DNA from: Lytechinus pictus
Lineage: Eukaryota
Assembly: GCF_037042905.1 (NCBI RefSeq)
Contig: NC_087245.1
Location: forward strand, 8,558,001-8,622,000
Direction of reading: 5' to 3'
Length of the DNA: 64,000 nt
Below the pieces are notes generated by a model. It ran no database searches, was not told the origin of the DNA, and saw only the letters and a list, made by a program, of their open reading frames with translations. Made by a program: the position numbers and the translations under genes. Positions 6,004 through 62,759 of this stretch are shown in pieces (positions within the stretch are counted from its first letter, which is position 1; each line of letters starts with the position of its first letter).

Positions 6004-6548
6004 CTGGAAACAAGAAAATACTCATGTAAAGATCAACAATTTATATTGTGACAAACATCAAGGGAAGCAGATTCCACTATAAATAGATTCCATACAACAT
6101 CACTTGTTAAGGAGCACTTTACTCAGATTTAAGTCAAAATCATAAGATTTTGGATGCTAAATTTGTTGATTAGAGGAAGAAGTACATTTACAGCCTTTTT
6201 TTTGTCTGAAAGCTGTGTAAGATCAAGTAATTTGAGCAGATCACGAAAAAGCTTTCAATTTCCTGTTAAGGAAAATAATATGTATTTTTTTAAATCCCAG
6301 AGCAAGCTATAAAGGAAGAACTGATGAAAATATCATCAGACACACATTATAATTTCAGAAATCAGCCAGAATTTGAAATTCATTTTGAAGGTTGGATTCT
6401 TGATCCCTCCTACGATTTAAAAAAATATGTTAATATACATCCACTTTTTTCATACTGTATGCTTTCTTGCAATCATATCTGAAAGAAGTACAATTACTAC
6501 TGAATGAATAGTCGAGACTGAAGACTGTCACTCTTCATTCTTACTCAC

Positions 6549-29192: not shown

Positions 29193-30044
29193 ACGGTCAA
29201 ATTTTGACGTCTCGTAAATAACTCTGCTTATGTCCATTGTGTTGAACTCCCCACCCCCACTAGTTAGCTAACGTCCCTTCAGGCCATGTTTTCTCCTTCT
29301 TGTGAATCTCCACATGTCTAAAACCCTCCCCCTTGATTTCTTATCCCTGGCCTCTTTCTCACTCTTTTTTTCTTGATTTTGGTTTTCTTTATCTCCAAAG
29401 CCCTTAATTCCTCACTCTCTTTCCAATCGGCCCATCCTCTCCCCGTCACCACCCCTCTCTTACCACAAATAATCTACATCCTCCTCTTCTCTGAGTCTTG
29501 ATCTTCCCCTCTTTTTTTTTCTATTTCTCTCTTCTCTCACCCCCAAGTCCTGGTCATAAATACTCTTTCATTTTAATAATGTCAATTCTATCTTTCACAC
29601 ATGCCAAAATTAAGTTGATCATCTTATCATCACGCCACCGGTCCATCATAGATTTAAATCACAATCAATCCAATAGTTTATTTTATTTTATTCATGACTG
29701 CACATGCACAAAAAGGATACAGCACCCATCACAAATCACACAAACATTCCCAGCAACTTTCTTTCTTCCATTCGCGATCAATTCACAGATCATTTTCAAA
29801 ATAAAGCAAGAGGGATGGCGTAACGTTTTTTTTTTTCCTGTTTTCAACATTTTTCTGTCTTTCTAAAAATAATTTTTATTTAAAATTATTATTATTCTAA
29901 TTATTTACTTATTGTTATTTTTTTATTTTTTATTTTTGGGAGGGGGTCAGACGACTTTTATAGTACTTTAGTATGAAAGTAAACTTGTCATAATAGGCCT
30001 ACATAGGTATAATATTATTATAAAGAAGTCGCACCCCCCAACAA

Positions 30045-33900: not shown

Positions 33901-35690
33901 AATTTTCTATTTGCTGCATGAGTAGTTTCTTGCACTACTTAAAAATCTTTCACTTCTTCATGATCCTGTACTTGTGTGTGAACACGCTCATTCAGTCATT
34001 GCTCATCCTCCGAACCTCCCACGGCTCCGAGCAACTCTTCCTCGGCTTCACTGTCATTACTATCACAGATCACTTCAGCACCATTCTGACTATTGGATTC
34101 ATTCTCGGTCATAACCTGCTCATTTCCCTTTCTTGATTGCTTGGTATTTCGGTTGGCCATTTGAACTATCCTTCCTCTACGTATGACGAGATTCATTTCC
34201 CCACCTTCTCGTCTTTGTTTAAGTTCTTGTCTGAGTTCGTATCTTTCCTGTCGCTCAAGTCGTGTGAAGTCAGGGGAAATGTAGGTATTTTTCCATGTCT
34301 CAGAATCTTTTAGGCTTTTAGCTTTCTCCAGAATCTCCCTCCTCTTTCTTGTCGACTCCAGCTCTACTAAAAGAACCCTTGGCTTGGTCCTTTTGTTTTG
34401 GTTTCTTCAACCGAGTCTAATGGATTTGACTGGCTTCACATTTTTGATATTCAGCTCTTTCAGAATGTCCTGGAAAGTACAGATATCTGCTTCTTGCCTC
34501 TCTTGATACTGGTCAGAGGACGATTCCTAAACGTTGTGGATTATCAAGTTGTTCTTTCTCTTTTCCCTTCAACCACTTCTTCCATCGTCACCATATTCAC
34601 CACATCAGAGGGTTTGCTAATATTCAGATCATCCTTATGACCATGTTCAGAGAAGGCCTGTGTGGTGCCTGATTTTGTATTCAGGCTAACAGTATGGCTA
34701 GCTAAGTTAGAACTTGCCACTTCCGCATATGATTTTCTCAATCTCTTCTCTCCTTCGCCTATCATGACCTTGATCGACTGTTGGGCTTGGGATATGATTT
34801 TGGCAACACTTTCATTAACTTTTTCTCCTACTTTGTTTGCCAACTTATCAACATCATCAGAGTTAATTTGAATTTGACTTCCTTCCTGGTCTATGTTCTT
34901 TGATGTCAGAGCATTCTTGGCTACTTTCAGTGCTTTTTTGTCACAGTCAATACAGAACCAGTGTACTTGCTTGTTATTGCATGAACTAATAAATGAATAC
35001 ACTTCATCATTCATCTCTTGACATGGTAAGCAAGACCACTTATCACAAAGTTCACATTCAATCATACGGTTTGTCATCGTATTACACTTGGAACATTTGA
35101 ATCCATTCTTGGTATGTCATTTCTGGGTTTAGATTTTGGTTTTACAGACTTACTGGTTTCTGCTTTCTTTTTACCCTTGCTTGTCTTGTGATCCTTCTTC
35201 CTGTCAATCTCTGGGACTGATGAAAAATCAACATCTCTTGCTTTCTTTGTGTCCTCTTCATTTACTGTGTTATCGCTGATGTTGATTTCAGACGAATCTG
35301 CAGCAGTTAAATCGGCAGTATCTTCCACTTCGGCCAGTATTGGATTCGGCGTGCCAACATCGTCTCCCGATCTTTGCCGATTCTCAGTGCCCGAGCTGCC
35401 GGCGTCCGCCACCGGTTATGCTTCCGGCGTTTTCTTGCCGAAGGGTGACAACTTTTTCAATTTCCTCTGAACTTTCTCCATGATCAGAATCTAGCTTGAA
35501 TCCTCTGAAAATATGCCAATCTCAATCCAAAATGAAGCACACCGCTGTCTTGAAACCAATCTTATGAAGATATTCACTTATGATACTCCAATCCGATAAG
35601 AAATCACAAATTTAAAGTCAAATCTGAGAGGTATGATAAAAAAACGTACACCACCATGACCACCCGCACGCGCGCATGTTCTCACCAGCT
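30957..35690 (-). mobile_element. Near-full-length decayed CR1-clade LINE (ORF1 with PHD finger; ORF2 with APE endonuclease and RT)
   Basis: ORF1 CELCDKWSCLPC...HWFCIDC; endonuclease LYTNADS and SDHC; RT YLDFKKAFD, PQGSILGP, FADDTK; CR1-type C-terminus RLDIRK...WNSLP; (GAT)n 3' tail; multiple frameshifts. Confidence 0.9.
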
Positions 35691-43299: not shown

Positions 43300-43827
43300 T
43301 AACCCAGAGAGCTCCCGCCCGCACAGCGGGCGGGAGCCCAGAAGCTTACCGTGTATTTTACCATTGTCACCGGACTAGGGTGATTTATGGTCTAAATATT
43401 TCTCCAAATGAATTGTGAAAACAGAAAGTATACAATTACCATGATTATATGGATGAAGGTCTAACGAGTGGCAGATTCCTGACATCTGGGCACAGTCTGG
43501 AACCTCAAAAAAACGAAAAGTTCTCTCCTTCTACCCCGTCTCGATCGGCCATTTTTGTTAAAAATCGTAACAAAATGGCCGATCGAGACTGGGTAGAAGG
43601 AGAGAACTTTTCGTTTTTTTGAGGTTCCAGACTGTGCCCAGATGTCAGGAATCTGCCACTCGTTAGACCTTCATCCATATAATCGTGGTAATTGTATACT
43701 TTCCGTTTTCACAATTCATTTGGAGAAATATTTAGACCATAAATCACCCTAGTCCGGTGACAATGGTAAAATACACGGTAAGCTTCTGGGCTCCCGCCCG
43801 CTACGCGGGCGGGAGCTCTCTGGGTTA
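43300..43827. mobile_element. Near-perfect palindromic MITE with a 9-bp TSD (Mutator-like)
   Basis: ~260-bp arms around a ~7-nt loop; TSD GTTCATTGA; empty site near 37990. Confidence 0.88.
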
Positions 43828-46503
43828 GTTCATTGAATGAGTGGTATACAGTGTGTGTTTCATTTGTGTGTGTTATAATTTCGAAAGCTTTTTAGAGCTG
43901 TGCGAGAGTTGGGGACTGTGTTCTGGAGAAAGGAGGTGATTTTCATGCGTTCTGGTAGGGGGGATTCTAATAATCCCCATTTTTGGATTTGGGGACTATA
44001 TCACGATTATGCCCGTAACTACGGGAAGCTCCGGGGGTAGTCGCGACCCAGAAGACGCGGTGCGGCGGAGCTCCTTGCTCCATATACATAGATCTCTACA
44101 TCCACCATTTCGTAAGACTTAACATTCTAAACAATAAAATAAATGTCTACAAATATTCATCACTCCTTCACTCTTTGAAGAAAAGATGATACTCACATTT
44201 ACCGGGCAATTTTTTGAGGGACTTCAGCTGATTGTTTACACTTCCAAGTCATGCAGCTACGCCTACGGTTTACAGGATCCAAATGGATCAATCACGCGCG
44301 CGCGCAAGCTAGCTAGCTAGCTAGCTTAGCTCGTACCGTATGACGACCTCAGCTCCACCTGGTACCATAGCTTTATCCAACTCTGTGGCTCCACCTCAGC
44401 TATGAGCAGAGATGATTATTAACGTTAGACAAGATCTACTGTAGTCGACTAGCCAGAGGTTGCATATAATGATAAAAAATAAGTGATAGTCACTTTCAAA
44501 AAGAGTAAAAAGCAACAATTATAATATGTGGTTGTGTTGTCAATGAATGCCAGTCATATTGAATTCATCGATAATGAAAAAAAATCAGTAGCAAATAAAT
44601 ACTGATCTGTCCAAACTATGAGTCAAATGCCCTCCAAAACCACAATAATTTTGTCTTTTCAGCTCTGACATTAGTCCAATTATTCTTATTTAGAATAGTC
44701 AAATTTTGTAGCTTCCCAATTACTTTAGAGTTGTACGCTTGACAGATTGATTGTAACTAGGGAAGTGGGAGTTAGACTCTGTTGTAACTAAGTTCAGAAC
44801 ATTATAATCATTATCAGGGTAATACTGGTACCATTCAGCATGTATGATTTGGTTTGATAAAAAGCAATACTTTCAACTGCTTTATTGCATTAGTCGTATC
44901 TAAAGTAAAAAAACGTGAAACAAAGATTTCTTTCTCCTCTCTGCCCAAATCTCATTTAATATTTTTACACTGTTCTTCATTCTTTCTACCTCTTCCTCTT
45001 TCCTTTTCTCCATCTTCCCATCTTCTCCTCTTACACTCTCCTTCCCACATTTCGTTCATCTTGCACACATCTTGTTTCAAATCTATTTCAGTGTTTTTCA
45101 CCTAGAAACATACAGCGCATTCAATGACCCGGAGATAGTAAGGAGCTACATGTACGTCCAGAATGAGTGAACAACTCTGGTTACAGACTGATTTTGCAAC
45201 CTCAATGCGAAATGTGTAACAGAGAAGTGTGCCAATTGGTTACTGATTCCACAGAACACATGCAATATAGGGCTTAATGGACATAAATCTGGCAAAGGCC
45301 CAACCAGAATTTGACCTGGTGATCAGTCAGGCTGCTGAAACAAAGACAAATCTCCCTTTTGCACAGTCTATTCTACACCCTCACTGAGATTGCAAAAACT
45401 GCCGAGAACATTACCACAGGAGCTTTTCCTACTGCAGTAGTTTTTATTTATCTTAAGGCACAGGGTTGTTAGGATCAGGATTAGGGTAAAATTTGAGTTT
45501 AGGTTTTATAACTGACTTTAAATACCGAAAACATTTTCTATGATGGCTATTTACAAGAAAGCAAATGTCATAATGTAATTTCAAACCTGTATACTCACGA
45601 TAAAATTACAATATACTTCACACATTTCTTGCATCACTGACTTTATTATCAAATTTACTCACTTTCTTTCAGGAATAATATGCATTGATTTTAATGTACA
45701 CATGTCCTCTTCAGTGAATAAAGTAGATATTTCCATTGTCAATGCATTCCTCAATTACAACATATAAACTTATTTTGAGTTTATTTTTTGAGGCATGAAC
45801 TATTCACTGTCATTTTCTATGTACAATACCTCAAATGTAAAAAATAAGCATTAGAATATTTCATCTTGACAACTACACAATTAAAAATTATTGATATCTC
45901 AGAACATCAAAGCCCATATTCAATTATTTAGTACAATACGGTCCCCTCAGACAACATCATCAAATCATAACAATTCAACACAGATGAACTCAAATTAAGT
46001 CTAATGATGACCATGGTATTTCATTATGTGAGCTAATGAGACAAGGTATGAAGAACATCATATATTTAAATATAGTCTTCAGTGGAAATTAGGCATCTTG
46101 AATGCAAAGGTTTTGTAATTATGCATGGTGGATGGGATATATTCTTCCACATAAATTAGTTTTTTTTAACGAAAAATATAAAATACAAAACAAAAATTGA
46201 ACTATTAATAACTTGCATATATAATTCAAATAAAGGCTTTGGACTAGAACACATGAGGTTTACTTTCATAAAGCAATGGAGATTCAAGTGTCCAACAGGA
46301 TGGAAAACAAATCATAATACAATACACGTACATTTCCAAGAATTAGGCAAACATCTACAAGAGGATAACACAAGTATCAAACACCAACTGCATTTTTATT
46401 TGGAGATATCATGATATGTAAACAATTATCAATTTCTTACTTAGGGTGTGTATTCATCAATGGTGTGATAGATTCAAGACGTACCTCCATAAATCGTAGT
46501 TAA

Positions 46504-47098: not shown

Positions 47099-48198
47099 TT
47101 AAGCAAGCTCATAATACAAATTGAAATACTTTTAAACCATCAAGGGGCGGACATACTATTGTGTTATTTCAACCATGCACATGATTTTGCATTTTTTTTA
47201 AGTCAGAGAAAGGTAGCTAGCCAACTCTTCAAAATAGAAATACTATTGGTATCTGGATAATATAGAAATAATATTGGTATCTGGATGATATCTGTATAAG
47301 GTAAGATTTGATAAGACACAATTCTATAATTCTCCTTGAAATTACTTGAAACTCTAAGAACTCAAATGTACCCATCCACAAACAGAATTAAGTGTTATGA
47401 TAAAACAGTTAAGCTATGCAGTTTTACACAGTTCCAAAATCTTATCAATTCCCATTAAAAAGAGATACAAGTAATGCAGTAAATCAGGCTACAGAAAATC
47501 AAAAAAGTTCCTTATATCAAAATTTGTCATTATATTTGTAACAGGAAACAATAGCAGCAAGAGAAACCTACTAATGTTTACACAGAATAAATAAGCAATG
47601 GAACCTAAGAGCAATGGTATTACACCAACTCAAAGTGATGATCAGGTGATAATAATAATCTGATAATACCCTATGTAATATCATTCTTTTTATTAAATTG
47701 TATTTGATATAAGAGTGTTCCTGATAAAAGTAAATAAAGACATGTGATATCTCACTCACAGCTGCCAGCTGTTCATATTTGTATTGTTTATTTCTCATAT
47801 TATTGTAGAAATAAATGATTTGATTAGATTTGTTTACATTCTACCATTAAAAAACAGATATACGTTTCTTCCAGTAAAACAATGTGATAAAGGTAGCTCC
47901 ATAGGCTCCACCAAACATTCATTAACTAATAATGCTTCAAAGCACATAACTCCCTATGATCATCAATACTATAAAGACTAATAATTGCCTTTACACAACT
48001 GGAAAGCAGTGTCGGAAACAATAACTGACCATTGAACTGACAATATTTGACAAACTATCGTTCATATTTAAACACTGTCATGAGAATGCCATCATAAATG
48101 TAATGTACACAGAAAGGAAGCAGATATATATATACAAAAATAAGATAGGGCCAATTGACATGGTGATCCTCGGAAGAAAGAGATAGATGAATAGAGGT

Positions 48199-48265
48199 TT
48201 AGAAGATATCACTGTCATCAGGGGCATCTAGGTCCCGGTACTGGATTAGAGAACGTGGGTCACCC
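48199..48265 (-). CDS. SRRT: SRRT last coding exon
   Basis: GDPRSLIQYRDLDAPDDSDIF* carries the conserved Ars2 C-terminal YRDLDAP motif; TAA stop. Confidence 0.95.
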
Positions 48266-48640
48266 CTGAAAAAATAACAAACAAAAGAACGTTTGATTAG
48301 TAAAACAGGCCTGAAATACTGTTGTGGTTAGATTAAAAAACATTTACACTCACTATACCTTAAATGTTGTAGATTTACATGAGGTAAACAAACATTCATG
48401 TGAAAGGCGAGGTGAAAAAACCCGTTTACTGTTACAGTAGTTGCGTTTAGAAGAAATTTTTTCTGTATGGACTCTTGATTAAAACATTAATATTAGGGCC
48501 GAGTCAAACGTCCTGTTAAACACTGTTCGAATGACCAGTTTATTCAAAAGAATAAACATCTTCTTTGGTCTACTCCGTATTCCTACATAAAATTCTACAA
48601 GTGGGACTAAATATTGTGGTCCATATGTGACATGAACTAA

Positions 48641-48747
48641 ACTTTTGGGAAAGTTTTCAGTTTTTTACCCCAGTGGTTAACCCTAACCACCTGTTTTGGG
48701 AAAGCTTTCAGTTTTTTACCCCAGTGGTTAACCCTAACCACCTGTTT
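48641..48747. repeat. ~51-bp direct duplication
   Basis: TTTTGGGAAAG...AACCCTAACCACCTGTTT occurs twice. Confidence 0.85.
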
Positions 48748-48958
48748 ATTAATTGCATCTAAATGATTTTGAAAAACTAAACGTAATTAGTATATTTTTG
48801 TTAAATAAACCTTACCTTTTTAAAATACAGTATATCAGCAACATATTTTACATGTATTCTACTTTTCTTGACTAATGATTAGAAAAATCATATAAATCAA
48901 AACCACAGAGCTAAATCTTGTCATTCCAATCGGAGAAGCTGTTCAGCATATACTTTAA

Positions 48959-49563
48959 AAGGATGCTCCAGGCTGAAGATGTTTATATCTCAATAAACAG
49001 AGTAAAATTCACAGAGCAAATATGCTGAAAATTTTATCAAAATCTGATAATACATAACAAAGTTATCAAATTTTAAAGAGTTGCATTATTCCGGTGAAAC
49101 AGTTCAAGGCATGTCTTCATGAATATTTATTAGATGGGCTGATGAAGTCATATCCCCACTTGTTCTTTTGTATTTTTAAATAATTAAAATTAGGTTTATT
49201 CAAATTTTTTCTACCTAGAAATATAACAATTGGATTGATAACTGATTAGTGCATTAGTTATTCATTGCTGCAACTTATCTCATCATAATGGAGACACATC
49301 AATTACACATTTGTGAAAAAATGAAACAATTATGATTTCATGTAATAACATAAGAAAAAGAAAAGTGGGGATGTGACATCATCAGCCCACCTAATGAATA
49401 TTCATGAAGACATGCCTAGAACTGTTTCACAGGAATAATGCACATCTTTAAACTTCAGTAACTTCTTTATTTGTTATACGATTTTGATGAAATTTTCAGC
49501 ATTTTGTTCTGTGAATTTCACTCTATTCATTTAGATATAAATATCTTCAGCCCAGGTATCCCT
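48959..49563. mobile_element. Palindromic TTAA-flanked MITE (Kolobok-like)
   Basis: Long imperfect inverted arms; TTAA on both sides. Confidence 0.8.
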
Positions 49564-49654
49564 TTAAAAAGATGAGAATTAAGGTATATTGTCCGATAGA
49601 TGAAGACAACTGTATATTCCTAGTCTATTCTCACCAAAAAGCATGTAGTCTCAC

Positions 49655-49748
49655 CTTCGCTGAAAGCTCCTTTGGTTACCACCTTGACTGGAATATCCAC
49701 CTCCACCATATGACTGATCATACCCTCCACGTCCAGATTGATTGAAAC
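49655..49748 (-). CDS. SRRT: SRRT penultimate coding exon
   Basis: FNQSGRGGYDQSYGGGGYSSQGGNQRSFQR; phase 1/2; AG and GTGAG. Confidence 0.85.
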
Positions 49749-49940
49749 CTGAAGTAAAAACAATTTTCAGAATTTTATTAGATTCATGCAATTGTGTTGT
49801 CTACATAGATTCAATACAAGCACTGGAGAAATATTCCATGCCCAATGCAATTTCTTCTGATGCAAGTAATGGGATAATAATTGAATCTTAGAATGAAATA
49901 GTAGTCATTATTACCAATACAAGGCATTTTAGCAGCTTAA

Positions 49941-50275
49941 CCCTAATTAGACAGGGGGGGGGGGGGCACATTTTTCGCGAGAAATCCGTCGCATAACATT
50001 TTTGACCACGTCACTTGCTGACTTTTTAACTTTGAAGTCTCGTGCAACTTTTCAGACCAAAATTGCTACCCCTGGGTACATTTTTTATAATACATATGGA
50101 TCAGATTCCTATAAAGAGTCTGTGAACCAAAAATTAGCATTTTAGGGGCATTATTTAGTTAATTAGTTAGCAATAAGATTTTTCACAGAATTTGATCTTA
50201 TAGTTTTGTAGATTATACCATGGGTAACACGCGTGCCAATTTTCGTCCCGTTGATATAGCTCAGTCTATTTAGGG
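49941..50275. mobile_element. piggyBac-like TTAA MITE (internally deleted copy)
   Basis: TTAA|CCCTAA...TTAGGG|TTAA; shares internal blocks with 2469-3151. Confidence 0.7.
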
Positions 50276-50390
50276 TTAATTAAAAGTAATTATTTCGCAC
50301 ACTACTTTCAATCTGAAACCAAAGCAGTAAATAGTAAGGAAAAAGGCACAAGAAATGAGAATTCCTAACATTATGCCACTATGTCTATAC

Positions 50391-50610
50391 CTCTACTGCT
50401 CTGTGAGAAACCCTGTTGGCCCCTATCTCTTCCTCCATCATAGCTTCCTTGCTGCTGGTAGCCTCTGTAACCACTACTGCTCCTCTGACCATTGTATCCC
50501 TGGTCTGATCCTTGGCTGTCATTGTTACTGGACTGTACTGGCTTTGGCTTAGCAGTTTCTACAACCTTGTGTCTACTTGAATCTTGTAGGTAGTTATTGA
50601 AGAACAGCAC
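50391..50610 (-). CDS. SRRT: SRRT exon
   Basis: VLFFNNYLQD followed by a G/S/Q/Y low-complexity tail; AG and GTATAG. Confidence 0.88.
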
Positions 50611-50969
50611 CTGTAGGCATTCAAATGGTGAATTAAGTAGTCATTTAAATCAAAGAACATGGTTTAAATGGCTTTTATGTATCACATTGTAACCATTAAC
50701 AAAGCATTCAATACATTTTTGCGCAACATTTGAGACCAATTTTGTGATGACTGGATCTGGGTAGGCAGTTGTGATGTTACTCAACATTTCGTAAGTGCAT
50801 GTGAGACAAAAATTGCTCAAAAACAGAATTTCAGGTACAAATCCATTGCAAATTATGTTTCCCCACCAACAAAGGATTAATATGCAGGCATACATACTCT
50901 CTTACCATTAATAAAGATAAAGTTTAGTTTCTATTGGTTTCCATGTTTAATTAATCACATTTGACCAAC

Positions 50970-51123
50970 CTCTTTCTTGACTGCCTCTATCTTGTCGCCA
51001 TGCTTATTGAAGATGTGTTTCCTGACAAACTCTGGTCCCTTGAACTTCTTTCCACTGAGAGGACAAAGCCACTTGTCCTTAGCAAGTTCCTTGGTGTTGG
51101 CCTTGATGAACTTCTCCACCTCC
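50970..51123 (-). CDS. SRRT: SRRT exon (C2H2-like zinc finger)
   Basis: [41 protein letters not shown] is the Ars2 zinc-finger region. Confidence 0.95.
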
Positions 51124-52017
51124 GTACATACCAAAAAGTCAAAATAGTCAAGGAAAAAAAGGATCCGCTTCATTGTAAATTCTAAAGAAATACTGAGACA
51201 TAATTTGTACTCATTTTTCTTTGTTTGAATAAATATTTTGTTTACTATTTACCCTACCTGATATGAATACAATTCAAAATGCCAATCAACACAATACAAC
51301 AATCTTGGAAGTGGTATCGGTACACCATGTGGTGCATCCTGAGACTTAGAAAAGTGGATAGTTCGAAGTGAAATGAAGAGGTGAGAAAGTGGAAGGTTGG
51401 AAGGTAGGGTACTCTTTTTGAAATGGTTAAGTCCTTAAAAGGATTGTGAACCCAAAAATTTGAGAGGGCTTGACTAGATGGAGAGATGAGAGATTGCTGG
51501 TTTGAGTCAGCGAGACGAGCAAGAGAAAAGTTTTGGGCAGGTTGACTGTTCGTATTTCAACAGTTGAGTCTTCTCTCCTGCTCTACAACTCCTCTCACTG
51601 AAACAAGCCAGCCTTCTCTTATCTCTCCAAGCCAAAGCCACTTAATAATAATAATAGCTAGATTTAAATAGCATTTTTTGCCCTAGGATACAAAGCGCTG
51701 CTATTATTACCCCGGCTTTAGTGGCACTGCCAATATAGAGAGCACAGCCATTTTCAGGACTAAACTCATTTCAGAAAATAATACCTGGTACTCTACCTTG
51801 CAACCTTCAACTTTCTGACCTTTCCATTTTATTTCTACCACAACCCACTTTTATTTATCCTTCCAGGTCTCACCAGATGGTAAACTGTAAACCACTTTTT
51901 TTCCATACCACCATGCAAACCTTCAAACATCATCACAGTAAAACAACACCAAGAAGAAAGGAAAGGAGATCACCCTAGGAGTAAAGAGCAAGGAATAGAT
52001 TGCTTTGGAAAGGATAT
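51124..52017 (-). other. U12-type (minor spliceosome) AT-AC intron
   Basis: 5' ATATCCTTT; branch point TCCTTGAC (51147-51154); 3' terminal TAC. Splicing gives in-frame ...KDQEL-EVEKF... Confidence 0.9.
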
Positions 52018-52126
52018 AGTTCCTGGTCTTTCTTCCCAAGCTTGTTGAGTTCTTCATCAGACATCTTGCTTTTGAGGTTCATAAGTGGTTGAACCTTGTT
52101 CTCAAAATTGGTCTGCCAATTATCAA
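52018..52126 (-). CDS. SRRT: SRRT exon upstream of the AT-AC intron
   Basis: DNWQTNFENKVQPLM...LGKKDQEL; ends at the U12-type donor ATATCCTTT. Confidence 0.9.
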
Positions 52127-52704
52127 CTGAAAAGAGAAATAATAACAAAGGGGTGTTCTTTCTACTTTTGTTACATTTTCACCCTTGATAACAATAAAAA
52201 TATTTGAACCATTTTCACCCATATAAGCATACTTCAACATGTTTGAAGTTGATCTATAAACTAATCTTTAGTAATCAACAACAAAAAGAGAGAAAGGAGC
52301 AATGACCCAAAACATAACGCCTCACGTAACAACATATGATGGATGTAGCAATAAAATTGAAATTCAGAATCAAGTCTAGATCACATTAGCCTATAATCTA
52401 GGTGGAGGCTGCAATTATTGAAATTGCTGTCTAATTTACACATAGGCAATACATCTGATACTGTGAGATCACAACCTATTCCCTCTTGTCTTACTTTAGT
52501 CATGATTATATTAAAATGAACTTTGATTCAGTGCGATTATCGTACAAAAAAAGCATACATAGGCTAAGAATACATTAGCACTATTATTTTCGAATACTTT
52601 CAAATGCATATTTAACATATATCTAAATGTGCTGGTAAAAAAAAAAAAAAAAACTCCTTTGTACTCTTTGTTCACAAATGATTTGCCAGTAGCCAAGTCC
52701 GATA

Positions 52705-53129
52705 GGCCCGAATTCACAAAGGTGGTTTTGAAAACCCACGGTTAAATCCATGGTTTATGCAGATTTCCTGTATAAATTACGCTTAATTTAGCGCGTATCG
52801 GGCGCATGTATAAAACATGTCCTATGCTGATGCGCGCTTTTGTCACAGTGCGCCAAATTGACGCCTGTTACCATGGTTAGATACGCTATTTAATTCATGA
52901 GTCCACTGTTTGAAGAGTGGACTCATGAATAAAAACCGTGGATTCATGAATAAAATAGCGTGGATAACCACGGCAACAGGCGTCAATTTGGCGCACTATG
53001 ACAAAAGCGTGCATCAGCATTGGACATGTTTTAATATACGCGGTAAAATAAGCGTAATGTATACAGGAAATATGCATAAACCATGGACTCAACCGTGGGT
53101 TTTAAACACCACCTTTGTGAATTCGGGCC
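52705..53129. mobile_element. PIF/Harbinger-like palindromic MITE
   Basis: TIR GGCCCGAATTCACAAAGGTGG; 3-bp TSD ATA; arms meet at ~52912. Confidence 0.85.
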
Positions 53130-53298
53130 ATAATGTCCCAATACCCTAAAATACAATTCATAGTGAGACTACTCCCTCCTATGTCAGATTCTGAATCCAC
53201 AATGTAAGGGCTCGTTGGATCCAAAGGCCACAGGGTGGGTACTGTTCTGTGCAATATTCAATCTTCAAATGAGCTTGAACTTGCGGCTGGAAACTTAC

Positions 53299-53452
53299 GA
53301 TCTCTTTGAGAGAGGCGATTGGGTGGATTCTGTCCTCTACAATGCATGATACCACACCTATTAGGCATCTCATCTTCTATCTTGTACATGGATGCATTGT
53401 AGTAATCCAGTGAATGCACCACTCGAAGATACAACAACAGACGATCAAGAAC
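53299..53452 (-). CDS. SRRT: SRRT exon
   Basis: [19 protein letters not shown]...[17 protein letters not shown] and GTAAGT. Confidence 0.95.
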
Positions 53453-53866
53453 CTAAAATTAAAAACAATTAGGATAAACGAGTAGAAATATACGCAGAGG
53501 TTACTCTGGTAACATAATTATCTATTGCAAGAAGACAAAATGAAATTGTTCTTCCCAATTCATCTTTACCAAATACGGACCCTACACCCAAGAATTTCAT
53601 TATGTCTAGTATAACAGCTTTTGTTAATGAAGACTATCCTCTCTGACAACCTAAGAATTACCTGTAAAAGAGCAAAGTATCTCTCTCTTACACTAAGCCA
53701 ATACAATACCTCATGTCTTTAATACCTAGCATATTATAAATCAAAAGAGGTTGAGGCATAACAATAGCCCCAGAGAGCCAAAAGGACAAGAATACTACGT
53801 AAAATACAAAGGAAAAAAACTGGTTGATATGTCACTTCCTTCTATTAGCACTGTAGGAAATCATAC

Positions 53867-54052
53867 CTTGCATAGAAGATCATCTTTCTCAAAGGAAATA
53901 TCCCCCATCTCTTGACCCTCTTCCTGTCCATCAGCCTTCATTCCAAGCAGTACCTCTTCCTCAGCACTCAATTCCTCTACAAGGTAATCTGTGATGTTCT
54001 CAAGGATTGGATTCCTTGCTGGCAATGGTTCTTTGGGTTCCTCTTCAGGTGT
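53867..54052 (-). CDS. SRRT: SRRT exon
   Basis: ...NPILENITDYLVEELSAEEEVLLG...; AG and GTATG. Confidence 0.93.
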
Positions 54053-54370
54053 CTGGGGGAATCATAAATATTTCAATTATAGTACTTGCAGTAACTCTCC
54101 TTTAAGAGTATTTTGTAAGACGACAAATTCAAAGTGAAAAGCATAGAATTAAATTTTTTTTCAATGTCAAAGTTATATCCAGGAGAAAGTTACATGCAGT
54201 GCTGGTCTACATCTATACTATTCAGAAATTATCCAAAAACAAAAGAGCAGGAATGTTAATTTACATGAGTGGAAGATCATTCAAGCTGCATAAATAGAAT
54301 TCCACCCCCCCCCAAAAAAAAAAAAAAAATCCCTCATGGTTTAAGTGTAGGAAGCAAGTATGGCAAGTTC

Positions 54371-54815
54371 CCCCAAGTCTGCGCAGTCCCCCTTGTCTGC
54401 GCACTTGCGTATCTGCGCGATTCTAGTAAAAGAAGATACGCAACGAACACAGACTTTACACATGCAATACATAGACAGGTATTCATAAAAAAATCCGACT
54501 CAAAATAGTGGAAAAATAATGAACTTAGGGCATTTCATGTGACAGCCTCAAAATGCAGCCTTTCTCATCAAAATCCCTGAATCGTGTGCAAAGTGAATGA
54601 GTGCGCAGACATAGGGTACCATTTTTTTTTCAATCTGAAAATGACTGCCCGAGGTTTTTTCAAGAAAATCCTATATTTTCTTTCATTTTTCAATGAGAAA
54701 TTTGGTACACTTACTCATAATAATATAAGGAACATTATTAACTGAAAGATTTTGTGAAATAAGAAGGTATTCATGTTAAATCTTAACTCAAATTGTTAGG
54801 TGCGCAGACTTGGGG
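54371..54815. mobile_element. MITE
   Basis: TIR CCCCAAGTCTGCGCA/TGCGCAGACTTGGGG; internal TCTGCGCA repeats. Confidence 0.65.
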
Positions 54816-54955
54816 CCCACCATCATACACTACCTTTTCTCGAGATTTCATCCAAAACAAGGAACAATGTTGTAGTATAAATACTAAATATTCATTCATT
54901 AACTAACATATCCTTTACAAGAAGCAGAAGTGTTTCTACTTGATTTGAAACTTAC

Positions 54956-55315
54956 AGTTTCTTCTTTCTCTTCAATGCTTCCCTCTTCAGTTTTTTCTGT
55001 CTTTTCTGTCTTTTCTGTTTTTTCTCCTTTATCTCCATCAGCTGCTGCTGCGGCAGCTGCAGCCTCTGCTTTCTTTTTCTCCTTTTCCTCCTGCTCTTTC
55101 TTCTTCCTTTTCTCATTCTTCTCTTTCCATTTTTTCAGATCCCATCCAGGCTCGCCAGTGAAGAGCTCATGTTTCTGATCCATGAGCTGAACAAGGCGTG
55201 CTGCCAATTTAAGATCAGATTTGACAATGTTCTTGTGTGCGGCAATGCCACTAACAGCACGGATACGGTGGGCCAAGTCTCGGTTGACTACAGGGCTCAG
55301 TTCACATTCTCTTAG
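54956..55315 (-). CDS. SRRT: SRRT exon
   Basis: LRECELSPVVNRDLAHRIRAVSGIAAHKNIVKSDLKLAARLVQLMD...; GTAAGT donor. Confidence 0.93.
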
Positions 55316-55384
55316 CTAGGAGAGGAAAGAGAATAAACAGTGTTAAAATAAGTCTTGAATATACAGGAGAAGCAGAAAGCAGCA

Positions 55385-55590
55385 CTCGCATCCTTTGGCA
55401 AGGCATTTATCTACATTTGCCACTCTCCACCCAGGTGTAGTAAATGGGTACCCGGTAGGAAGGAATTCCTTGAATGCTCGAGCGTCCGATCAGGATAGCC
55501 GTACTAAAGCTGGGGTAATAGTATGCAGCGCTTAGAGACAAATTTCATTTGTATTAAGCGCTATATAAATGTCGCATATTATTATTATTA
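55385..55590 (+). mobile_element. 5'-truncated SINE
   Basis: Core shared with the SINEs at 3649 and 7971; (ATT)n tail. Confidence 0.75.
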
Positions 55591-55835
55591 AAGTCACATG
55601 AAAGGAGGGGAAGGGGGGGGGGGGGAATACACAAACTTTCCTGCATTTATCTTTAAAAATATGACTGCCATTTAATCCAGTCCACACTTATTTCTACACA
55701 CATTTGCATTCTCACATTTTTCTTTTTTATATTGTCAATCACTCAGACATTAAAAATATCAGAATGAAGTTGTTGAAAGAAACCTAAGGCCATTATCTGC
55801 TCTTCCTATTTTATTTTCAAATCTCGTTTACTTAC

Positions 55836-55976
55836 CCTAATACTACTAAGGTTCCAACAGATTTCCTTGATATTGACTGTCCTGTCGAAGGTAACCCATC
55901 CATGACGCTGAAAGTTTCTATCACGCTGAGGATCAGCTAGGGCAACTCTCATGAATCCCTTGTATCGCTTACAAAG
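55836..55976 (-). CDS. SRRT: SRRT exon (RRM)
   Basis: [47 protein letters not shown]. Confidence 0.95.
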
Positions 55977-56291
55977 CTGTAGAAAACATTCAATGAATGA
56001 GTTATTGATGTGTCAATCAACATTGGTAATACAATGATTTGTGTGGGCTACAAAAAATATGGAAAATGAGATAGTGAAAATTTAAAGAAATTGGACATGA
56101 AATAAGCAAGACAATTGGCAAATTGTTAGGAAACTGTGGTTTCAGGGGTGGTGGTTTGGGATGTAAAAACTAGTAATCTTGTTTATTCAACCCGTTCCCC
56201 TTTACAATACTTGGTCCTGATGGTCTTAGTCTTATGATGCACATGCTCAAAACTCTGTTGAATGTATGATGCTAACATCCTAAGAACTCAC

Positions 56292-56515
56292 CGAAACTAT
56301 CTCCTCCTTCTTTATAATGGGAGCAACATTCCTGATGAAAATAGAGTAGGTCTTATGAAGTGCTCTGGGTTTAGGTTCATCTGGATCTTTCATTTCTTCT
56401 TCACCTTCTTCCCCCTTCTCTCCTTCTTCTCCTTCCTCTCCTTCTTCCTTTGCTTCTCCTTCTTCAAGCTTGTTATCACTCTCTGATGCACCCTTCTCAC
56501 CACTGCTCTCTAAGC
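56292..56515 (-). CDS. SRRT: SRRT exon (start of RRM)
   Basis: ...EPKPRALHKTYSIFIRNVAPIIKKEEIVS is the start of the Ars2 RRM; AG and GTGAG. Confidence 0.92.
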
Positions 56516-56538
56516 CTGGAGGAAAATAACATCCGAAC

Positions 56539-57053
56539 CAGGGTTGGGCTCAATTACTTTCTTCAATTACATATACATTTATGTAATTGAAGAAATGTTC
56601 AATTACAATTACTTTTCAATTAAATAACTTTTTTTTCAATTACAATTACCAATTACTTTTGTCAATTACAATTTCAATTACTTTCTATAAAAGTCATAAA
56701 TGAAATGAATTTGTATTCTGTATGTACAAGCACCAACTATTTCAACAAAATTCTAAGTTCTAGAGAAACTGACAAGATGAAGGTTTATGTTAAATGGCAC
56801 TGATTCTGCCTATTACACTCTTTGATGCTGAAGCAGTTGACATGAAAAAGGTTATGAAATTAAATCACAAATAAGTTTATTGTAAAGTAACTGAATGCGA
56901 TTAAAAGTAATTTGTAGTAATTGAAGTCAATTACATTTTTTTCAATTACAATTACTTTCCCTTTCAAAATTTCACATACAATTACAATTACTCAAAAAAA
57001 AATGTAATTAATCATGCAATTGATCAATTACCTTGTAATTGAGCCCAACCCTG
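56539..57053. mobile_element. hAT MITE with AATTAC subterminal repeats
   Basis: TIR CAGGGTTGGGCTCAATTAC; 8-bp TSD ATC(C/A)GAAC. Confidence 0.85.
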
Positions 57054-57526
57054 ATCAGAACATAGTTTCAAAAATAAAATTCTTTTGTAAGTAATCATGC
57101 AATACATCAAATGTATATCATTTGAACAACATCAAATTTCAATACATAAAACTCAGTTGGAAAAATCTCCAATTTGTATAATTAGCCAAACACTTTAAAT
57201 ATCATATCACATCAAAAAGAATAATTTGCTAATTGATACCTCAATTTTAAATCAAAATCTGAAAAATGTGTCACTTCAAAAACTGGCATTGACTAACCTT
57301 ATCATGAATAGAAGTAGAAGAATATACTCAAGTAATTTTATAGCTAGGTAGAATATTTTTTAAAAAGCACACTGAGCTTGCGGGTCAGATAATCGTATCA
57401 TGTATTTTCATCTTGACATTCTGAGCACATACATATTCAAGTCAAAATCAATAAAAGACATAAGAGTTTAAGCTTTTTCTAACAAACAAACAACGGGAAA
57501 TGTGGTGAAAATGAGCAAATGCTTAC

Positions 57527-57701
57527 CAGGAGGAGCTGGTTCTGGTTCTAGCATTCCTTGTTCATGTCCTGATTCATCTGATTCACTATCACTCCCTGAA
57601 CTGCTACTAATATCACTCTCACTATCACTGTAATCTGGCTCTCGATGCTTGCGCTTCTTGCCTCGCTTTCTTTTCTTACCTTGTCGGCCCACCTCTCCAT
57701 T
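57527..57701 (-). CDS. SRRT: SRRT exon (basic NLS-like segment plus Ser/Asp tract)
   Basis: NGEVGRQGKKRKRGKKRKHREPDYSDSESD...; AG and GTAAG. Confidence 0.87.
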
Positions 57702-58025
57702 CTGTAAAATATAACATCAAAATTGCCAATTAAACAAGATTTGTTGTCCATAAAACTGATTTATGCAGCTGCATACTTAATACATTTTGAAAATTTAACT
57801 CATTACATTGCATTTCCATAGCTAAATCAGATTACTCTCAGACATCAAGAACAATCTTTGCTTTAAAATAACCGGAAATGGTTCTACTGGGTAGTGTCAA
57901 ATAAACATCCCTGAACACTCTTAATCAGAACTAATTACAGCAAAATTGTACAAACTTTATCATTACTTTTTCATCTCTAAAGAATATAAATATCAAAATA
58001 AATGTGATACCAATAAGCATCTTAC

Positions 58026-58109
58026 CTTTTCCTCATCACCGTCTTCCTTCTTTTCATCATCCTGGGGTGGTGGAGGGATTGGATCTGGCAGGGACAACTT
58101 GCTGTCATC
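58026..58109 (-). CDS. SRRT: SRRT exon (acidic/proline linker)
   Basis: DDSKLSLPDPIPPPPQDDEKKEDGDEEK; 84 nt, phase 0/0; AG and GTAAG. Confidence 0.8.
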
Positions 58110-58506
58110 CTAGAAATAAACAACAAAATCAACAATTAAAAGCTACAGGCATCAATCTCCAATTACTTTTTGGGGTAGAAGTATAAGCCGAAGGATAGCC
58201 TATTTCAGCCAGCTCAGGATTTAAACAAATTAGTGCTGTATACACAAGCTATATTTCTTGGATAGAGATTTAGTAAGAGATGAGAAAGTTCGACAATGTG
58301 CAGTTTCCCAAAGCCTACATGTACATTTAAATATTTTTAGGGCAAAGTCATTTTTCTATATTCCTGAAAAAATTTCAATGGGACACCAGGCTTTTCAAAT
58401 GCCATCGAGAGGAACATTATAGCAAAGACTTGGATGGGCTTGGATCAATTCGGGCCCTGTTTTCACAAAATAAAAATACTGATAAAGTTATTCTGATAGT
58501 ACTTAC

Positions 58507-58648
58507 ATCTTTAGGTGGTGGTGGAACAGGTTCATCATCAGTGGATTTGTCAACTATCTCACCATCTCCTTCCATCTTATCTTTCTTATCATCATCATCA
58601 TCTCTCTCTTCACCTTCTTCTCCTTCTTCTTTCTTGTCATCTTGGTGT
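58507..58648 (-). CDS. SRRT: SRRT exon (acidic linker)
   Basis: HQDDKKEEGEEGEERDDDD...PVPPPPKD; phase-compatible AG and GTAAGT. Confidence 0.85.
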
Positions 58649-59142
58649 CTAATATAAAATAAATCATAATGCAAATCAGGACAATGCTCATAATTTGATT
58701 GATTTCTTATTTCTGATGACTCTTCAGTACGGAAAAAAACATTGCATACATAAATAAGGCCCCAAATACAAACAGAATGTCACAGGAAAAGAGAGATATA
58801 ATATGATGAAATTCTTCTTACTTTGAATTTAAAATTGCAATTTTTTTCCACCTCATACCTATAAAACATGAAAGACAACTAATATCAAATTAATGACAGA
58901 CAGCATTTGAATTTCTCTTTGCAAACCATTAAGCTTCATAACACAGCACTCTTTATATGTTGAGCTCATAATTTTCACTAGACACCAAAGAATGAAATTA
59001 ACTATTCCTTTATAAAATGTTCATGTCAACTGATTTCTGTATTGCTTTATCAAAACAGTTGAATTTTTCAAGAAAGGTATGAAGTCAAGACCAATGTTTC
59101 CATCTGAACATTAACTATAATGAAGACATATATTCAACTTAC

Positions 59143-59269
59143 TTATCATCTCCTTTGTTGCTCCGTTGAGACTCTGACATAGTACGGTCTCTATCAAAGG
59201 ATCTTACTGGCTCTGGTTGATCTAGGATGGTGAGGTCGAAATCATTACCTCCTTCCAATCTTATCACAA
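59143..59269 (-). CDS. SRRT: SRRT exon
   Basis: VVIRLEGGNDFDLTILD; AG and GTAAGT boundaries. Confidence 0.92.
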
Positions 59270-59802
59270 CTGAAAGGAATATAACAAGAAACATTTGAGT
59301 TTTTTATGCAACATTTATGACCATAACTGAGGGGAGTGGGTGAAAAAATAATCAAAGAAATTTCCGGCATTTTGCTGACTAATAATTCTATTTATTAGAT
59401 ATAATTATTTTCAGCCTGGAGTACATCTGTTGGACTCAGCAAGAAGAATAAACAGCAAAGAAAAAACGAAAATTAAAAAAAGGTTTCCAAAAAATAAAGG
59501 ACCATACGAAAGTACATAAGAGTTGTGACAAAGCAAAGGGAAAAGAAAATATTTTATCAAACACCAGGCGGATGTTTCATAAAAGTTGTCAGAGCGTACA
59601 ATTTTAGTGAAATACTTGGTTTTGATTGGCTGAAAGGCACTGGCCTCTGACTGTTACTATGGTAACTGTCGGAGAACGACAACTTGTCAGTGCTGTGACA
59701 GAGTAAAGGAAAAAGAAAAAATTTTGTGAAACACCAGTTGTCAGTTCAGACCCCCTGAATACTGTTGCACATCTAACAGAAGAATGTAATGTCATCTTAT
59801 AC

Positions 59803-59972
59803 CTGCATCCAAAAGACGAGTGACTCCTTCTGATTTATCAGCCTGAAGGGTAACCTTGTTGACTTCACCCCTGTCCAACATCTCCAGAAAGACTCTTAGA
59901 CGTCTGTCAATGCCCTCTTCAACATCGGCCTGCTCCCGCTCACAATCATCAGGGTAATACTTTGCACGAAAC
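59803..59972 (-). CDS. SRRT: SRRT exon
   Basis: FRAKYYPD...RRLRVFLEMLD...VTRLLDA; AG/GT boundaries in frame. Confidence 0.92.
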
Positions 59973-62459
59973 CTGTATGTTTAGAAAATGAATAATCATA
60001 AGGATTAGTACCTCAAAGACACATGTAAATGGACCTGAAGATAGAAGAAACAGTGATATTTAACCAACAATTTTCTTCTTTTTTGAAAAAATTGCATCCT
60101 AAAAATGGCACTAAACAAAGACATGCTCAAATCAACCTAGAATTAGTGCTATTCATTTATATCAGAAAATAATAATATGAGTACAGGTTTGAATTGTTTC
60201 TATCTGCACAGAATAGGGTCTGTTAAAATTTTGACCATGTCATCATTATTCAGCAGCATTTTTGGATATTTTGCAACCAAAAAGCTTTGTGAAAAGATTG
60301 AGGACATTAAAGACTCATTCAGACACACTGCAACAAAGCTCAACAAACAGTTTTAGAGTGTTCATACATGGTAAGAAAAATAACTTGATTTAAATGAATT
60401 TGCATTATATGCTATGATTTTAAAAGTCTGTCGAAAATCAAACTCATGATATTGTCATAATCTTGTGTCTTACGAGTTTTGCTTTCTACATGATGAGTCT
60501 GTCGCTTTGTAACATCATGGCTGAATGAGCTTAAACAAAAATAATCAGCACGGTATCTTTTACTTTCTGATAGGATACAACAGTGTATTAATTGAATTTA
60601 CAAATATCATTTTCAACACACATCAATGTTTGCTCTTATAGAATGAATAAAATATATACTAGTATTTTTCAAATATACCATCATTTGAAAAAAAATATAT
60701 GACAAGTCTTCCTGGAGAAATAGTAATAAAAAAGACATCATTTTTTCCTGGCTTTAGAAAAAGTGTTTCCCCCTAAATGATATTAACCCCAACCTTTCGG
60801 AAGACATTACTTGGTTTGAAATACATGTACAGATATATTCTATAAAGGTCGGTATGAAATAGTCATTACAGTGTAGAGGTCAAGAAAAAACTAGGTCCAC
60901 TAGGTCTCAAGTCAAAAATCTAAAAGATGAACTAAAATCTACTACATATGTCATCGCACAGGGACAGCTATTGTCACCCCATAGCATTGCTTGCTTGATG
61001 AATGTAATGTCCCTTGTGTATAAAGCTCTAATTCCCAAAGGATTAAAACCCCAAGTTCATTCAAGGTTCACTTTGCAGCTTAAATTAAACCATTGTGATG
61101 ATCAAACCTTATGCTTTCCTCCACCAGCATCCCCATCTCTGGCAAATCCACAGCCCACTACATGACTCACAGAATCGATTTTTCTGAAATTAAAAGAAAA
61201 CACACCACCATGCCGGAGTTCACATGAACCCTCTCCCAGAAGCTGGCCTGACGTCGTTTTATTCACACTCCTGTTGAACATTCTACGGTGTCTAATATCA
61301 TGGTAGGATATAACAATATAAACGATGTCGCTAACGCAGATATCATGTTGTCTCATGGCAACGTCGATGGTGACTAAACATTTCAGACGGAACCATAACG
61401 CGGTGTGATTCTATGCAACTATGAATGGGTAGTACGCGTTAAATAGTAGAAGTAGGGGTAGTACGCGTATTGTAGAAGAGTAGTACACATATGAGTAGAA
61501 GCCACGATCCACTGCATTGTTTCACAGTGGTGGCTCAAAGCAGATAAATAGAAAGCATAAGACGTGGGTCGTACAAGGAGCCATATCTATAAACGTATCC
61601 AGACAAACGAATGGTTCTTCCTTTTTTTTTGCTGTGGAGTATGAGGGTTAGACATCATAACAAATAATCTATTTTTGTTTTTATAACATTAAAGTTCTGA
61701 TTCCAATCATATCGACATTTCTTTACATTATCTGAATAATCAATAAATTAAAATATAATAAGACAGTTAACTGTAGCTAATTCAGCATGATATTCATCAT
61801 ATATTTTTCTCCCTATCAATCATCACTATCTCTTCATGGACATGCAATTTTCATTCATTTTATGTAATTTCAGTACGTAAATAAATAAATTGGTTGGCAT
61901 TATTAAGAGGGTCCCTCTTGTGAATTACTAACACAAACTCTACCACAGAAACATGCATACACAGGAATTGTTTGGGAGCAATTAATATTTCCTATATGGG
62001 GCTAATTTTTCATGGTATTGTTCAACACAAAATGCTATTTTTCTTGAGCCTTACGGGTCCTAGCTTGCATCTTAATAGGCTAGTTTGGAATTTCACAAGC
62101 AAAATTGCCCTTAGCCCAATGTATATTTTTCCACTAAAAATAAAACCTGATATATTCAAGGTCCATGTATTTTGTTTTCTAATTAAACATCTGAAATGCT
62201 GACATACACATTTGGGAATACAACAATGCAAAATGCATTACATTGCATTACCTGGAATGTTGGCATCATCAAAATCACACCATAATCAAAACATAATGAA
62301 TGTTTGATCAGTAGCACTTATCCTTACATGTTTAAATTAACAAATGAATACACACTGATATTTCTGCCTAAAGAGCGATTAACCCTACACCTAATAACTC
62401 ACTGCGCTAAAGCATAATATATTATATCAATATCTATTCATGGGACCAGCCTTACTCAC

Positions 62460-62657
62460 CATTCTTCATCCTTATGAGCCAAAAAGAACTCGCTAAGTTG
62501 GGCCTTGTGAAACTCCAGCTTGTAAGCGTTGTATTTCTTTACTGCCTCTTGGTCATCAATAGAGTCTTCTTGCTTGGCCAAGAACTGCTTAAAACTAAGC
62601 ATTTGATTGGAACTGCTCTCTCCTCGACCACCAGAGTCCCCTTCCATGCCATGGCTA
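62460..62657 (-). CDS. SRRT: Serrate RNA effector (Ars2) homolog, internal exon (upstream exons beyond the right edge)
   Basis: MLSFKQFLAKQEDSIDDQEAVKKYNAYKLEFHKAQLSEFFLAHKDEEW is the conserved Ars2 N-terminal region; GTGAG donor. Confidence 0.92.
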
Positions 62658-62759
62658 CTAGGAATGTTTGAACCATATTATAAAACATGTTCAGAATTAT
62701 GAATATATGCAGTTCTTTCAACTCACTCAATTAAAAAAAAAACAGGAAGGGGTAGTAAA

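Follow-up and report, generated by a model that had tools for sequence, protein, structure and literature searches.

An ancient U12-type AT-AC intron is efficiently spliced from the SRRT/Ars2 gene of the sea urchin Lytechinus pictus

The minus strand of a 64,000-nt stretch of Lytechinus pictus DNA (the window) encodes SRRT/Ars2, and one intron of this gene opens with AT and closes with AC directly before an exon whose C2H2-like residues we take to be the zinc finger, raising the questions of whether such a junction is used in RNA, which spliceosome would remove the intron, and why it has persisted. The host gene had been named by the initial annotation from the letters alone, and the name is borne out by a match of the downstream exon to Serrate RNA effector homolog (ARS2) chains in the PDB (E 1e-24). 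PF04959 (ARS2) was found on both exons that flank the intron, on the upstream one below the gathering score, and the two exons abut on the Pfam profile. The best named relative, Lytechinus variegatus RefSeq SRRT isoform X3 (P0002), to which the window exons align, contains both PF04959 and PF12066 (SERRATE_Ars2_N), the pair of domains by which we recognise a SERRATE/Ars2 (SRRT) gene. Its 51-residue exon is 100% identical to that of the window, and of its 13 tblastn segments, 10 share 94-100% identity with the window and the remaining three 91, 81 and 75%. The coding region is arranged as follows, with about the first 150 amino acids lying beyond the right end of the window:

48199..62659 (-): part of the SRRT/Ars2 coding region within the window, with 16 exons and 868 codons open to a single stop
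52018..52126 (-): coding exon before the intron, 109 nt, covering positions 16-49 of Pfam ARS2
50970..51123 (-): coding exon after the intron, 154 nt, covering positions 51-101 of Pfam ARS2

The AT-AC intron is the 12th of the 15 SRRT introns in the window, the other 14 being GT-AG, and its ends and internal signals are these:

51124..52017 (-): U12-type AT-AC intron, phase 2, 894 nt (sequence and RNA joint)
52009..52017 (-): U12 5' splice site ATATCCTTT (sequence and orthologous donors)
51147..51155 (-): best U12 branch motif, TTCCTTGAC, with its candidate A at 51148 (motif match)
51138..51146 (-): second, weaker branch-like motif TATTTTGAC, A at 51139 (motif match)
51124..51126 (-): 3' splice site TAC (sequence and RNA joint)

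The upstream exon ends in CAG GAA CT at 52018 (-), the intron starts with ATATCCTTTCC at 52017 and ends in TATGTAC at 51124 (-), and the next exon begins with G GAG GTG, so that the exon end, the intron start, the branch motif about 23 nt from the intron end and the closing TAC were all read correctly by the initial annotation. The donor at 52017 agrees with the U12 consensus (A/G)TATCCTT (PMC3291851, in excerpt), and TTCCTTGAC supplies TCCTTRAC near the 3' end, with 23 nt remaining 3' of the motif and 24 nt 3' of the A at 51148. A U12 AT-AC intron is expected to have no distinct polypyrimidine tract; in the last 24 nt, two short T runs are interrupted by GAC and GG. Removal of the intron joins the reading frame across 52018/51123, as had been claimed and as a translated 28-residue junction peptide confirms, while unspliced read-through meets a stop 13 codons inside the intron. 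Neither signal is above chance by its frequency in the window, where ATATCCTTT was seen three times against 1.5 expected and TTCCTTRAC twice against 1.6 expected. What is beyond chance is that the motifs flank a junction for which protein and RNA give independent evidence: from base composition, the 9-mer donor would fall at this named site with a chance of ~1e-5, and the branch motif within a 23-position range with a rough chance of ~7e-4. A search of the whole window with Rfam returned no matches, so that at the gathering threshold the intron contains neither snoRNA nor snRNA.

To follow the junction in RNA, four of 24 listed runs, from three studies and under two organism labels, were mapped on positions 48000-54200, with about 6% of the raw reads used for X19 and X20 and about 25% for X22. 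A joint from 51123 to 52018, which skips 894 nt, ends in GT..AT on the plus strand (AT..AC on the minus strand) and has 0 bases of ambiguity, was present in all four, and the split reads that the initial annotation had proposed to seek therefore exist. They number 14 with 10 starts in X19, 13 with 12 starts in X20, and 28 with 15 starts in X22, which carries the second organism label and fixed exon differences, and the joint lies in one contig of depth 739 in X1. Five neighbouring GT-AG joints drew 6-17 reads in X19 and 4-25 in X20, counts that the 14 and 13 reads of the AT-AC joint resemble, so that this joint is not visibly under-used. Joints were seen in RNA for the last six introns of SRRT, and exon reads in the stranded runs X19 and X20 had their first mate on the plus strand only, which fits minus-strand RNA.

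Unspliced RNA was scarce. In X1, whose RNA status is guessed, contigs within the intron had depths of 7.7, 10.8 and 15.4, one of them crossing the 3' boundary, which is about 1-2% of the spliced depth of 739, and repeat-free bins of neighbouring U2 introns had depths of 0-3. In the raw reads, the repeat-free part of the intron was covered to less than one sense read. A mild excess of retention is known for U12 introns (PMC4066798, in excerpt), and the small unspliced signal is compatible with it and does not imply regulation. Read depth at 51519-51725 was rejected as a product of retention and comes from a repeat with loose ends, which lies within a broader foldback:

51350..51852 (no strand assigned): degenerate foldback in the intron, arms 51365-51412/51788-51835 and 51479-51519/51589-51629
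51642..51722 (no strand assigned): short repeat fragment in the intron, 72% like 55503-55591, presumably SINE/LINE-tail-like

The repeat draws reads from copies elsewhere and has its loose ends at 51721 and 51675. It and a longer element at 55380-55591 are copies of one repeat family, and in each of the runs X19 and X20 over 400 reads continue past 51721 into one consensus with a strong strand bias, indicating that the family is highly transcribed elsewhere. The fold of the intron (z -7.9, or -9.3 with 6 shuffles) was considered as a splicing aid and dropped as not special to this intron, because z values of -4.3 to -44.6 were also obtained for four of the 13 GT-AG introns that were folded. 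Strong foldback repeats at 52705-53130 and 48830-49600, which we take to be MITE-like, lie in neighbouring GT-AG introns with fold z of -20.9 and -44.6, and attract many reads from copies elsewhere. Farther out in the window, a long near-perfect inverted repeat with arms of ~270 nt was noted by eye at 43300-43840, downstream of SRRT, and long open frames in pieces at 23204-25379 (+) and 31100-35116 (-) are presumably reverse-transcriptase/endonuclease-like and LINE-like. Further U12-like motifs, a donor-like GTATCCTTTT at 29720 (-) and TTCCTTAAC followed by a close AG at 6273 (-), lie near a possible other gene (open frame 8486-8091) and are candidate sites only.

From the consensus signals and their conservation we infer that the minor spliceosome does the cutting. 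U11 would read ATATCCTTT and U12 would pair with the CCTTGAC branch region, the U11/U12 di-snRNP being known to recognise donor and branch motif jointly (PMC3584512, in excerpt), and cleavage at TAC would then join both halves of the ARS2 domain, while a failure of splicing would give a truncated or decayed product. The machinery is on record for Strongylocentrotus purpuratus, which has U11, U12, U4atac and U6atac and where 274 of about 147,000 introns are minor (PMC11347168 Tables S4, S7). Three nearby alternative acceptors and three exon-skips that we tested were all frame-shifting, and the shifts would remove the zinc-finger exon together with the C-terminal peptide, through which Ars2 binds the cap-binding complex (PMC5670239, in excerpt). 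On paper, 27 in-frame GT/GC-AG pairs exist near the junction, and all of them add residues to the conserved domain or delete residues from it. Given these frame shifts and domain changes, full-length Ars2 needs the exact AT-AC cut.

To learn how widely the intron is shared, an alignment of the zinc-finger exon was scanned against metagenome contigs, where at least 587 stretches matched, 169 were confirmed and the best 80 were kept, and the end of the upstream exon was located with a protein profile of the 22 residues that precede the junction, without regard to splice motifs. The comparison of intron position and type among orthologues that had been suggested at the outset supports the U12 AT-AC class, as do the splice signals and the RNA joint: 28 of the best 80 loci have an AT-AC U12 intron at the same phase-2 position with ATATCCT donors (ATATCCTT in 27, ATATCCTC in one), and another 4 have there a GT-AG U12 intron with GTATCCTT donors and the branch motif, so that both position and signals are conserved. 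Short U2 introns (GTAAG..AG) occupy the position in 3 of the 80, in the Daphnia clade, and 23 have no intron there; in 21 the upstream exon was unplaced, and the branch motif is followed by AC (19) or AG (2). Donor and acceptor are strictly paired, AT with AC in 28 of 28 and GT with AG in 7 of 7. The best 80 loci are redundant: at 95% exon identity they collapse into 59 clusters and at 85% into 38, and among the 38 the AT-AC form occurs in 9, the GT-AG U12 form in 2 and the U2 form in 2.

At least 5 of the 23 intronless loci (L010, L015, L023, L041 and L055) are genomic and keep their other introns and are thus true losses, while most of the others resemble transcripts and are thus uninformative. 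L037 lacks the U12 intron and instead has a GT-AG U2-like intron of 776 nt, 11 nt upstream in phase 0, between KK and DPET (770-1559, just before the match at 1559); L030, with a similar upstream exon, has its AT-AC intron at the usual site, and the proteins P0190, P0199 and P0303 show a shifted acceptor as in L037. Intron sliding coupled to a U12-to-U2 replacement is possible in L037. In L025, L061, L063, L068 and L073, the intron that follows the zinc-finger exon starts with GC, not GT.

A tree was built from 47 of the best 80 loci and 31 named proteins, leaving out 11 near-duplicates, L037 and the 21 acceptor-only loci; with only 85 columns and 39 of 75 inner branches open, it is too shallow to order events. 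Within it, the AT-AC loci L017 and L021 fall in an anthozoan clade (SH-aLRT 95), a coral placement shared by the exon of L021, 96% identical to Montipora, and the AT-AC loci L001 and L007 group with Mercenaria (SH-aLRT 97). The U2 loci L011, L016 and L020 group with Daphnia, Macrothrix and Eulimnadia (SH-aLRT 97). L046 stands among arthropods, with insects as its best matches, and one large AT-AC clade is free of any named protein. For the vertebrate state of the position, one mammal-like fragment was obtained (P0121), seemingly derived from a transcript.

All four known states, AT-AC U12, GT-AG U12, U2 and lost, thus occur at the SRRT position in animals. Since corals, bivalves and sea urchin all have the AT-AC form, it is the simplest candidate for the ancestral state, one that would predate the cnidarian-bilaterian split provided that parallel gain is rare, as it is for U12 introns according to PMC10639083 (in excerpt). 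The published route runs from AT-AC through GT-AG U12 to U2, with loss commoner than conversion (PMC2831892, in excerpt); the pattern at the SRRT locus matches it, and the changes there would have followed the same order. Taking these observations together, the intron is very probably a constitutive U12 AT-AC intron, inherited from at least the cnidarian-bilaterian common ancestor.

One feature of the Lytechinus intron is unusual. Its best branch A lies 24 nt from the intron end, against 10-18 nt in the orthologues under a permissive pattern and an optimum of 11-13 nt for U12 introns (PMC3584512, in excerpt), and it falls inside the 8-30 nt accepted by Sheth et al. (PMC1557818, in excerpt). 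The weaker TATTTTGAC, with its A at 51139, 15 nt from the intron end, resembles a tandem duplication of TTCCTTGAC, and the AC that closes it lies 10 nt past the first branch A, where it would be an out-of-frame acceptor; this acceptor is absent among the joints listed. Either TATTTTGAC is the real branch point, or its GAC is passed over for TAC. Three close relatives have the stretch translated as LDYLDLLV, which hints at a better second branch motif in them.

An AT-AC intron might nevertheless be removed by the major spliceosome, as a U2-dependent ('AT-AC II') intron, of which 15 are known in human (PMC1557818, in excerpt). The T-rich 3' end and the unusual distance of the best branch motif from the end would suit such an intron. 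However, U2-type AT-AC introns have a G at +5 (PMC1557818, PMC2831892, both in excerpt), whereas this donor has C there and ATATCCTTT is unlike GTRAGT past +2, and corals and bivalves alike retain the donor motif along with the branch motif, which leaves removal by the major spliceosome very unlikely. That the AT-AC junction is no true junction at all, the RNA instead using nearby GT-AG sites or the joint being an artefact of assembly or mapping, is almost certainly wrong. The 27 in-frame pairs offer such sites, and some public models of other species use sites of this kind; none of the 27 is among the joints listed, the use of nearby GT-AG sites that the initial annotation had named as its refutation was not seen among them, and no rival joint appears near either intron end among the joints listed, besides which there are 203 weaker joints. 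An unambiguous AT-AC joint in four of four runs, three studies and two organism labels refutes this reading, barring rare isoforms among those 203.

It is also conceivable that the intron has been retained because it limits the rate of Ars2 production in a feedback, in which minor-spliceosome levels would set Ars2 output and the reverse, since Ars2 with the cap-binding complex helps to process and export snRNAs (by inference including U11, U12 and U4atac). Knock-down of ARS2 affects snRNA 3'-end processing (PMC5670239, in excerpt), a U12 intron is also found in the gene of its partner CBP20/NCBP2, in sea anemone as well as in human and mouse, every mis-splicing that we tested loses the zinc-finger exon and the C-terminal tail, and the unspliced depth of 7.7-15 against 739 in X1 exceeds the 0-3 of neighbouring U2 introns. 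Yet retention is only ~1-2% in X1 and almost nil among raw reads, subtype switch, conversion or loss of the intron has happened repeatedly (including the five or more genomic loci without it), SRRT is not a human or mouse minor-intron gene, and Larue and Roy regard such patterns as largely neutral (PMC10639083, in excerpt), so that a feedback role is unlikely. An extended form, in which the U12 introns of Ars2 and CBP20 would make the snRNA-maturing cap-binding/Ars2 machinery depend on the minor spliceosome, as an ancient feedback loop kept from coral to sea urchin whose Ars2 half was given up by mammals, cladocerans and further lineages, with a Lytechinus poison acceptor (the duplicated branch motif and its out-of-frame AC) tuning Ars2, is slightly more doubtful still. 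Support for the loop is circumstantial, and repeated loss and conversion weaken it. Most likely, the constitutive U12 intron persists by inheritance and not as a regulated switch.

The initial annotation had predicted that the junction would be mis-modelled by gene predictors confined to GT-AG introns, which held in part: five named public models are broken, whereas the RefSeq models checked, including L. variegatus P0002, are correct. Of 24 named proteins at the junction, the five are broken at or beside it, one is broken a few residues upstream and 18 are intact; the affected models are these:

Apostichopus P0254: upstream exon skipped
Actinostola P0239: 7-8 residues missing
Tegillarca P0115, Branchiostoma P0042 and Haemaphysalis P0013: start just before the junction
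Papilio P0247: broken a few residues upstream of the junction

The AT-AC junction is the presumed cause of the six breaks. As to earlier records of the intron, SRRT is absent from the tables of human and mouse minor-intron genes (PMC6717393), which contain NCBP2 as a control, and from the supplement of PMC11347168, where NCBP2 stands in the responsive-intron table. Ars2 is not named in the excerpted account of 71 insect U12 introns (PMC3291851), two of which are labelled 'unknown', and full-text searches, in a literature with few subscription papers, turned up none that describes a U12 intron in SRRT/Ars2/SERRATE. Because the 263 classified species include S. purpuratus and the junction is modelled in RefSeq, catalogues such as MIDB, IAOD or that of Larue and Roy probably contain the intron already, without comment.

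The SRRT intron is therefore a real, efficiently spliced and ancient U12 AT-AC intron and an ordinary member of a well-known class. For annotation, it would explain several split or shortened public models of invertebrate Ars2 at one junction. For evolution, it offers a single locus at which an ancient minor intron outside the mammalian lists is found in AT-AC, GT-AG U12, U2, shifted and lost states, and it implies that human-centred catalogues understate the ancestral set of minor introns. In sea urchin embryos, RT-PCR across the intron could further serve as a simple read-out of how active the minor spliceosome is. The picture of the minor spliceosome and Ars2 is unchanged unless regulated retention is found.

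Human and mouse ARS2 have a non-canonical site of their own in intron 18, which we take to lie downstream of the zinc finger and hence not at the position of the sea urchin AT-AC intron. That site, a GT-TG acceptor in the same gene, belongs to a U2-type intron of 182 nt with a TG/AG tandem acceptor (PMC1557818, PMC2374985, both in excerpt). Another likeness is the minor intron of CBP20/NCBP2, which also sits in the cap-binding/Ars2 machinery and is shared by sea anemone and bilaterians (PMC5932401, in excerpt; PMC6717393), although it belongs to another gene and is of the GT-AG subtype and kept in human and mouse, whereas SRRT is unlisted as a mammalian minor-intron gene. With animal U12 AT-AC introns in general, the SRRT intron shares the ATATCCTT donor, CCTTRAC, YAC, the pairing of AT with AC and GT-AG neighbours (PMC1557818, PMC3584512, both in excerpt); it departs from the 11-13 nt optimum (PMC3584512, in excerpt) in its 24 nt, with a weaker motif at 15 nt, and in its T-rich 3' region. 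The surveys in PMC2831892 and PMC7367187 (both in excerpt) rest on human-, fly-, plant- or Ciona-seeded sets or on 24 genomes, whereas the SRRT position holds no minor intron in human or mouse, so that human-centred lists miss it. In its history, SRRT nonetheless resembles the cases in those surveys, namely the 8 clusters with both U12 subtypes and a U2 form described by Lin et al. 2010 (PMC2831892, in excerpt), and the switch, conversion and loss at one position described by Moyer et al. 2020 (PMC7367187, in excerpt).
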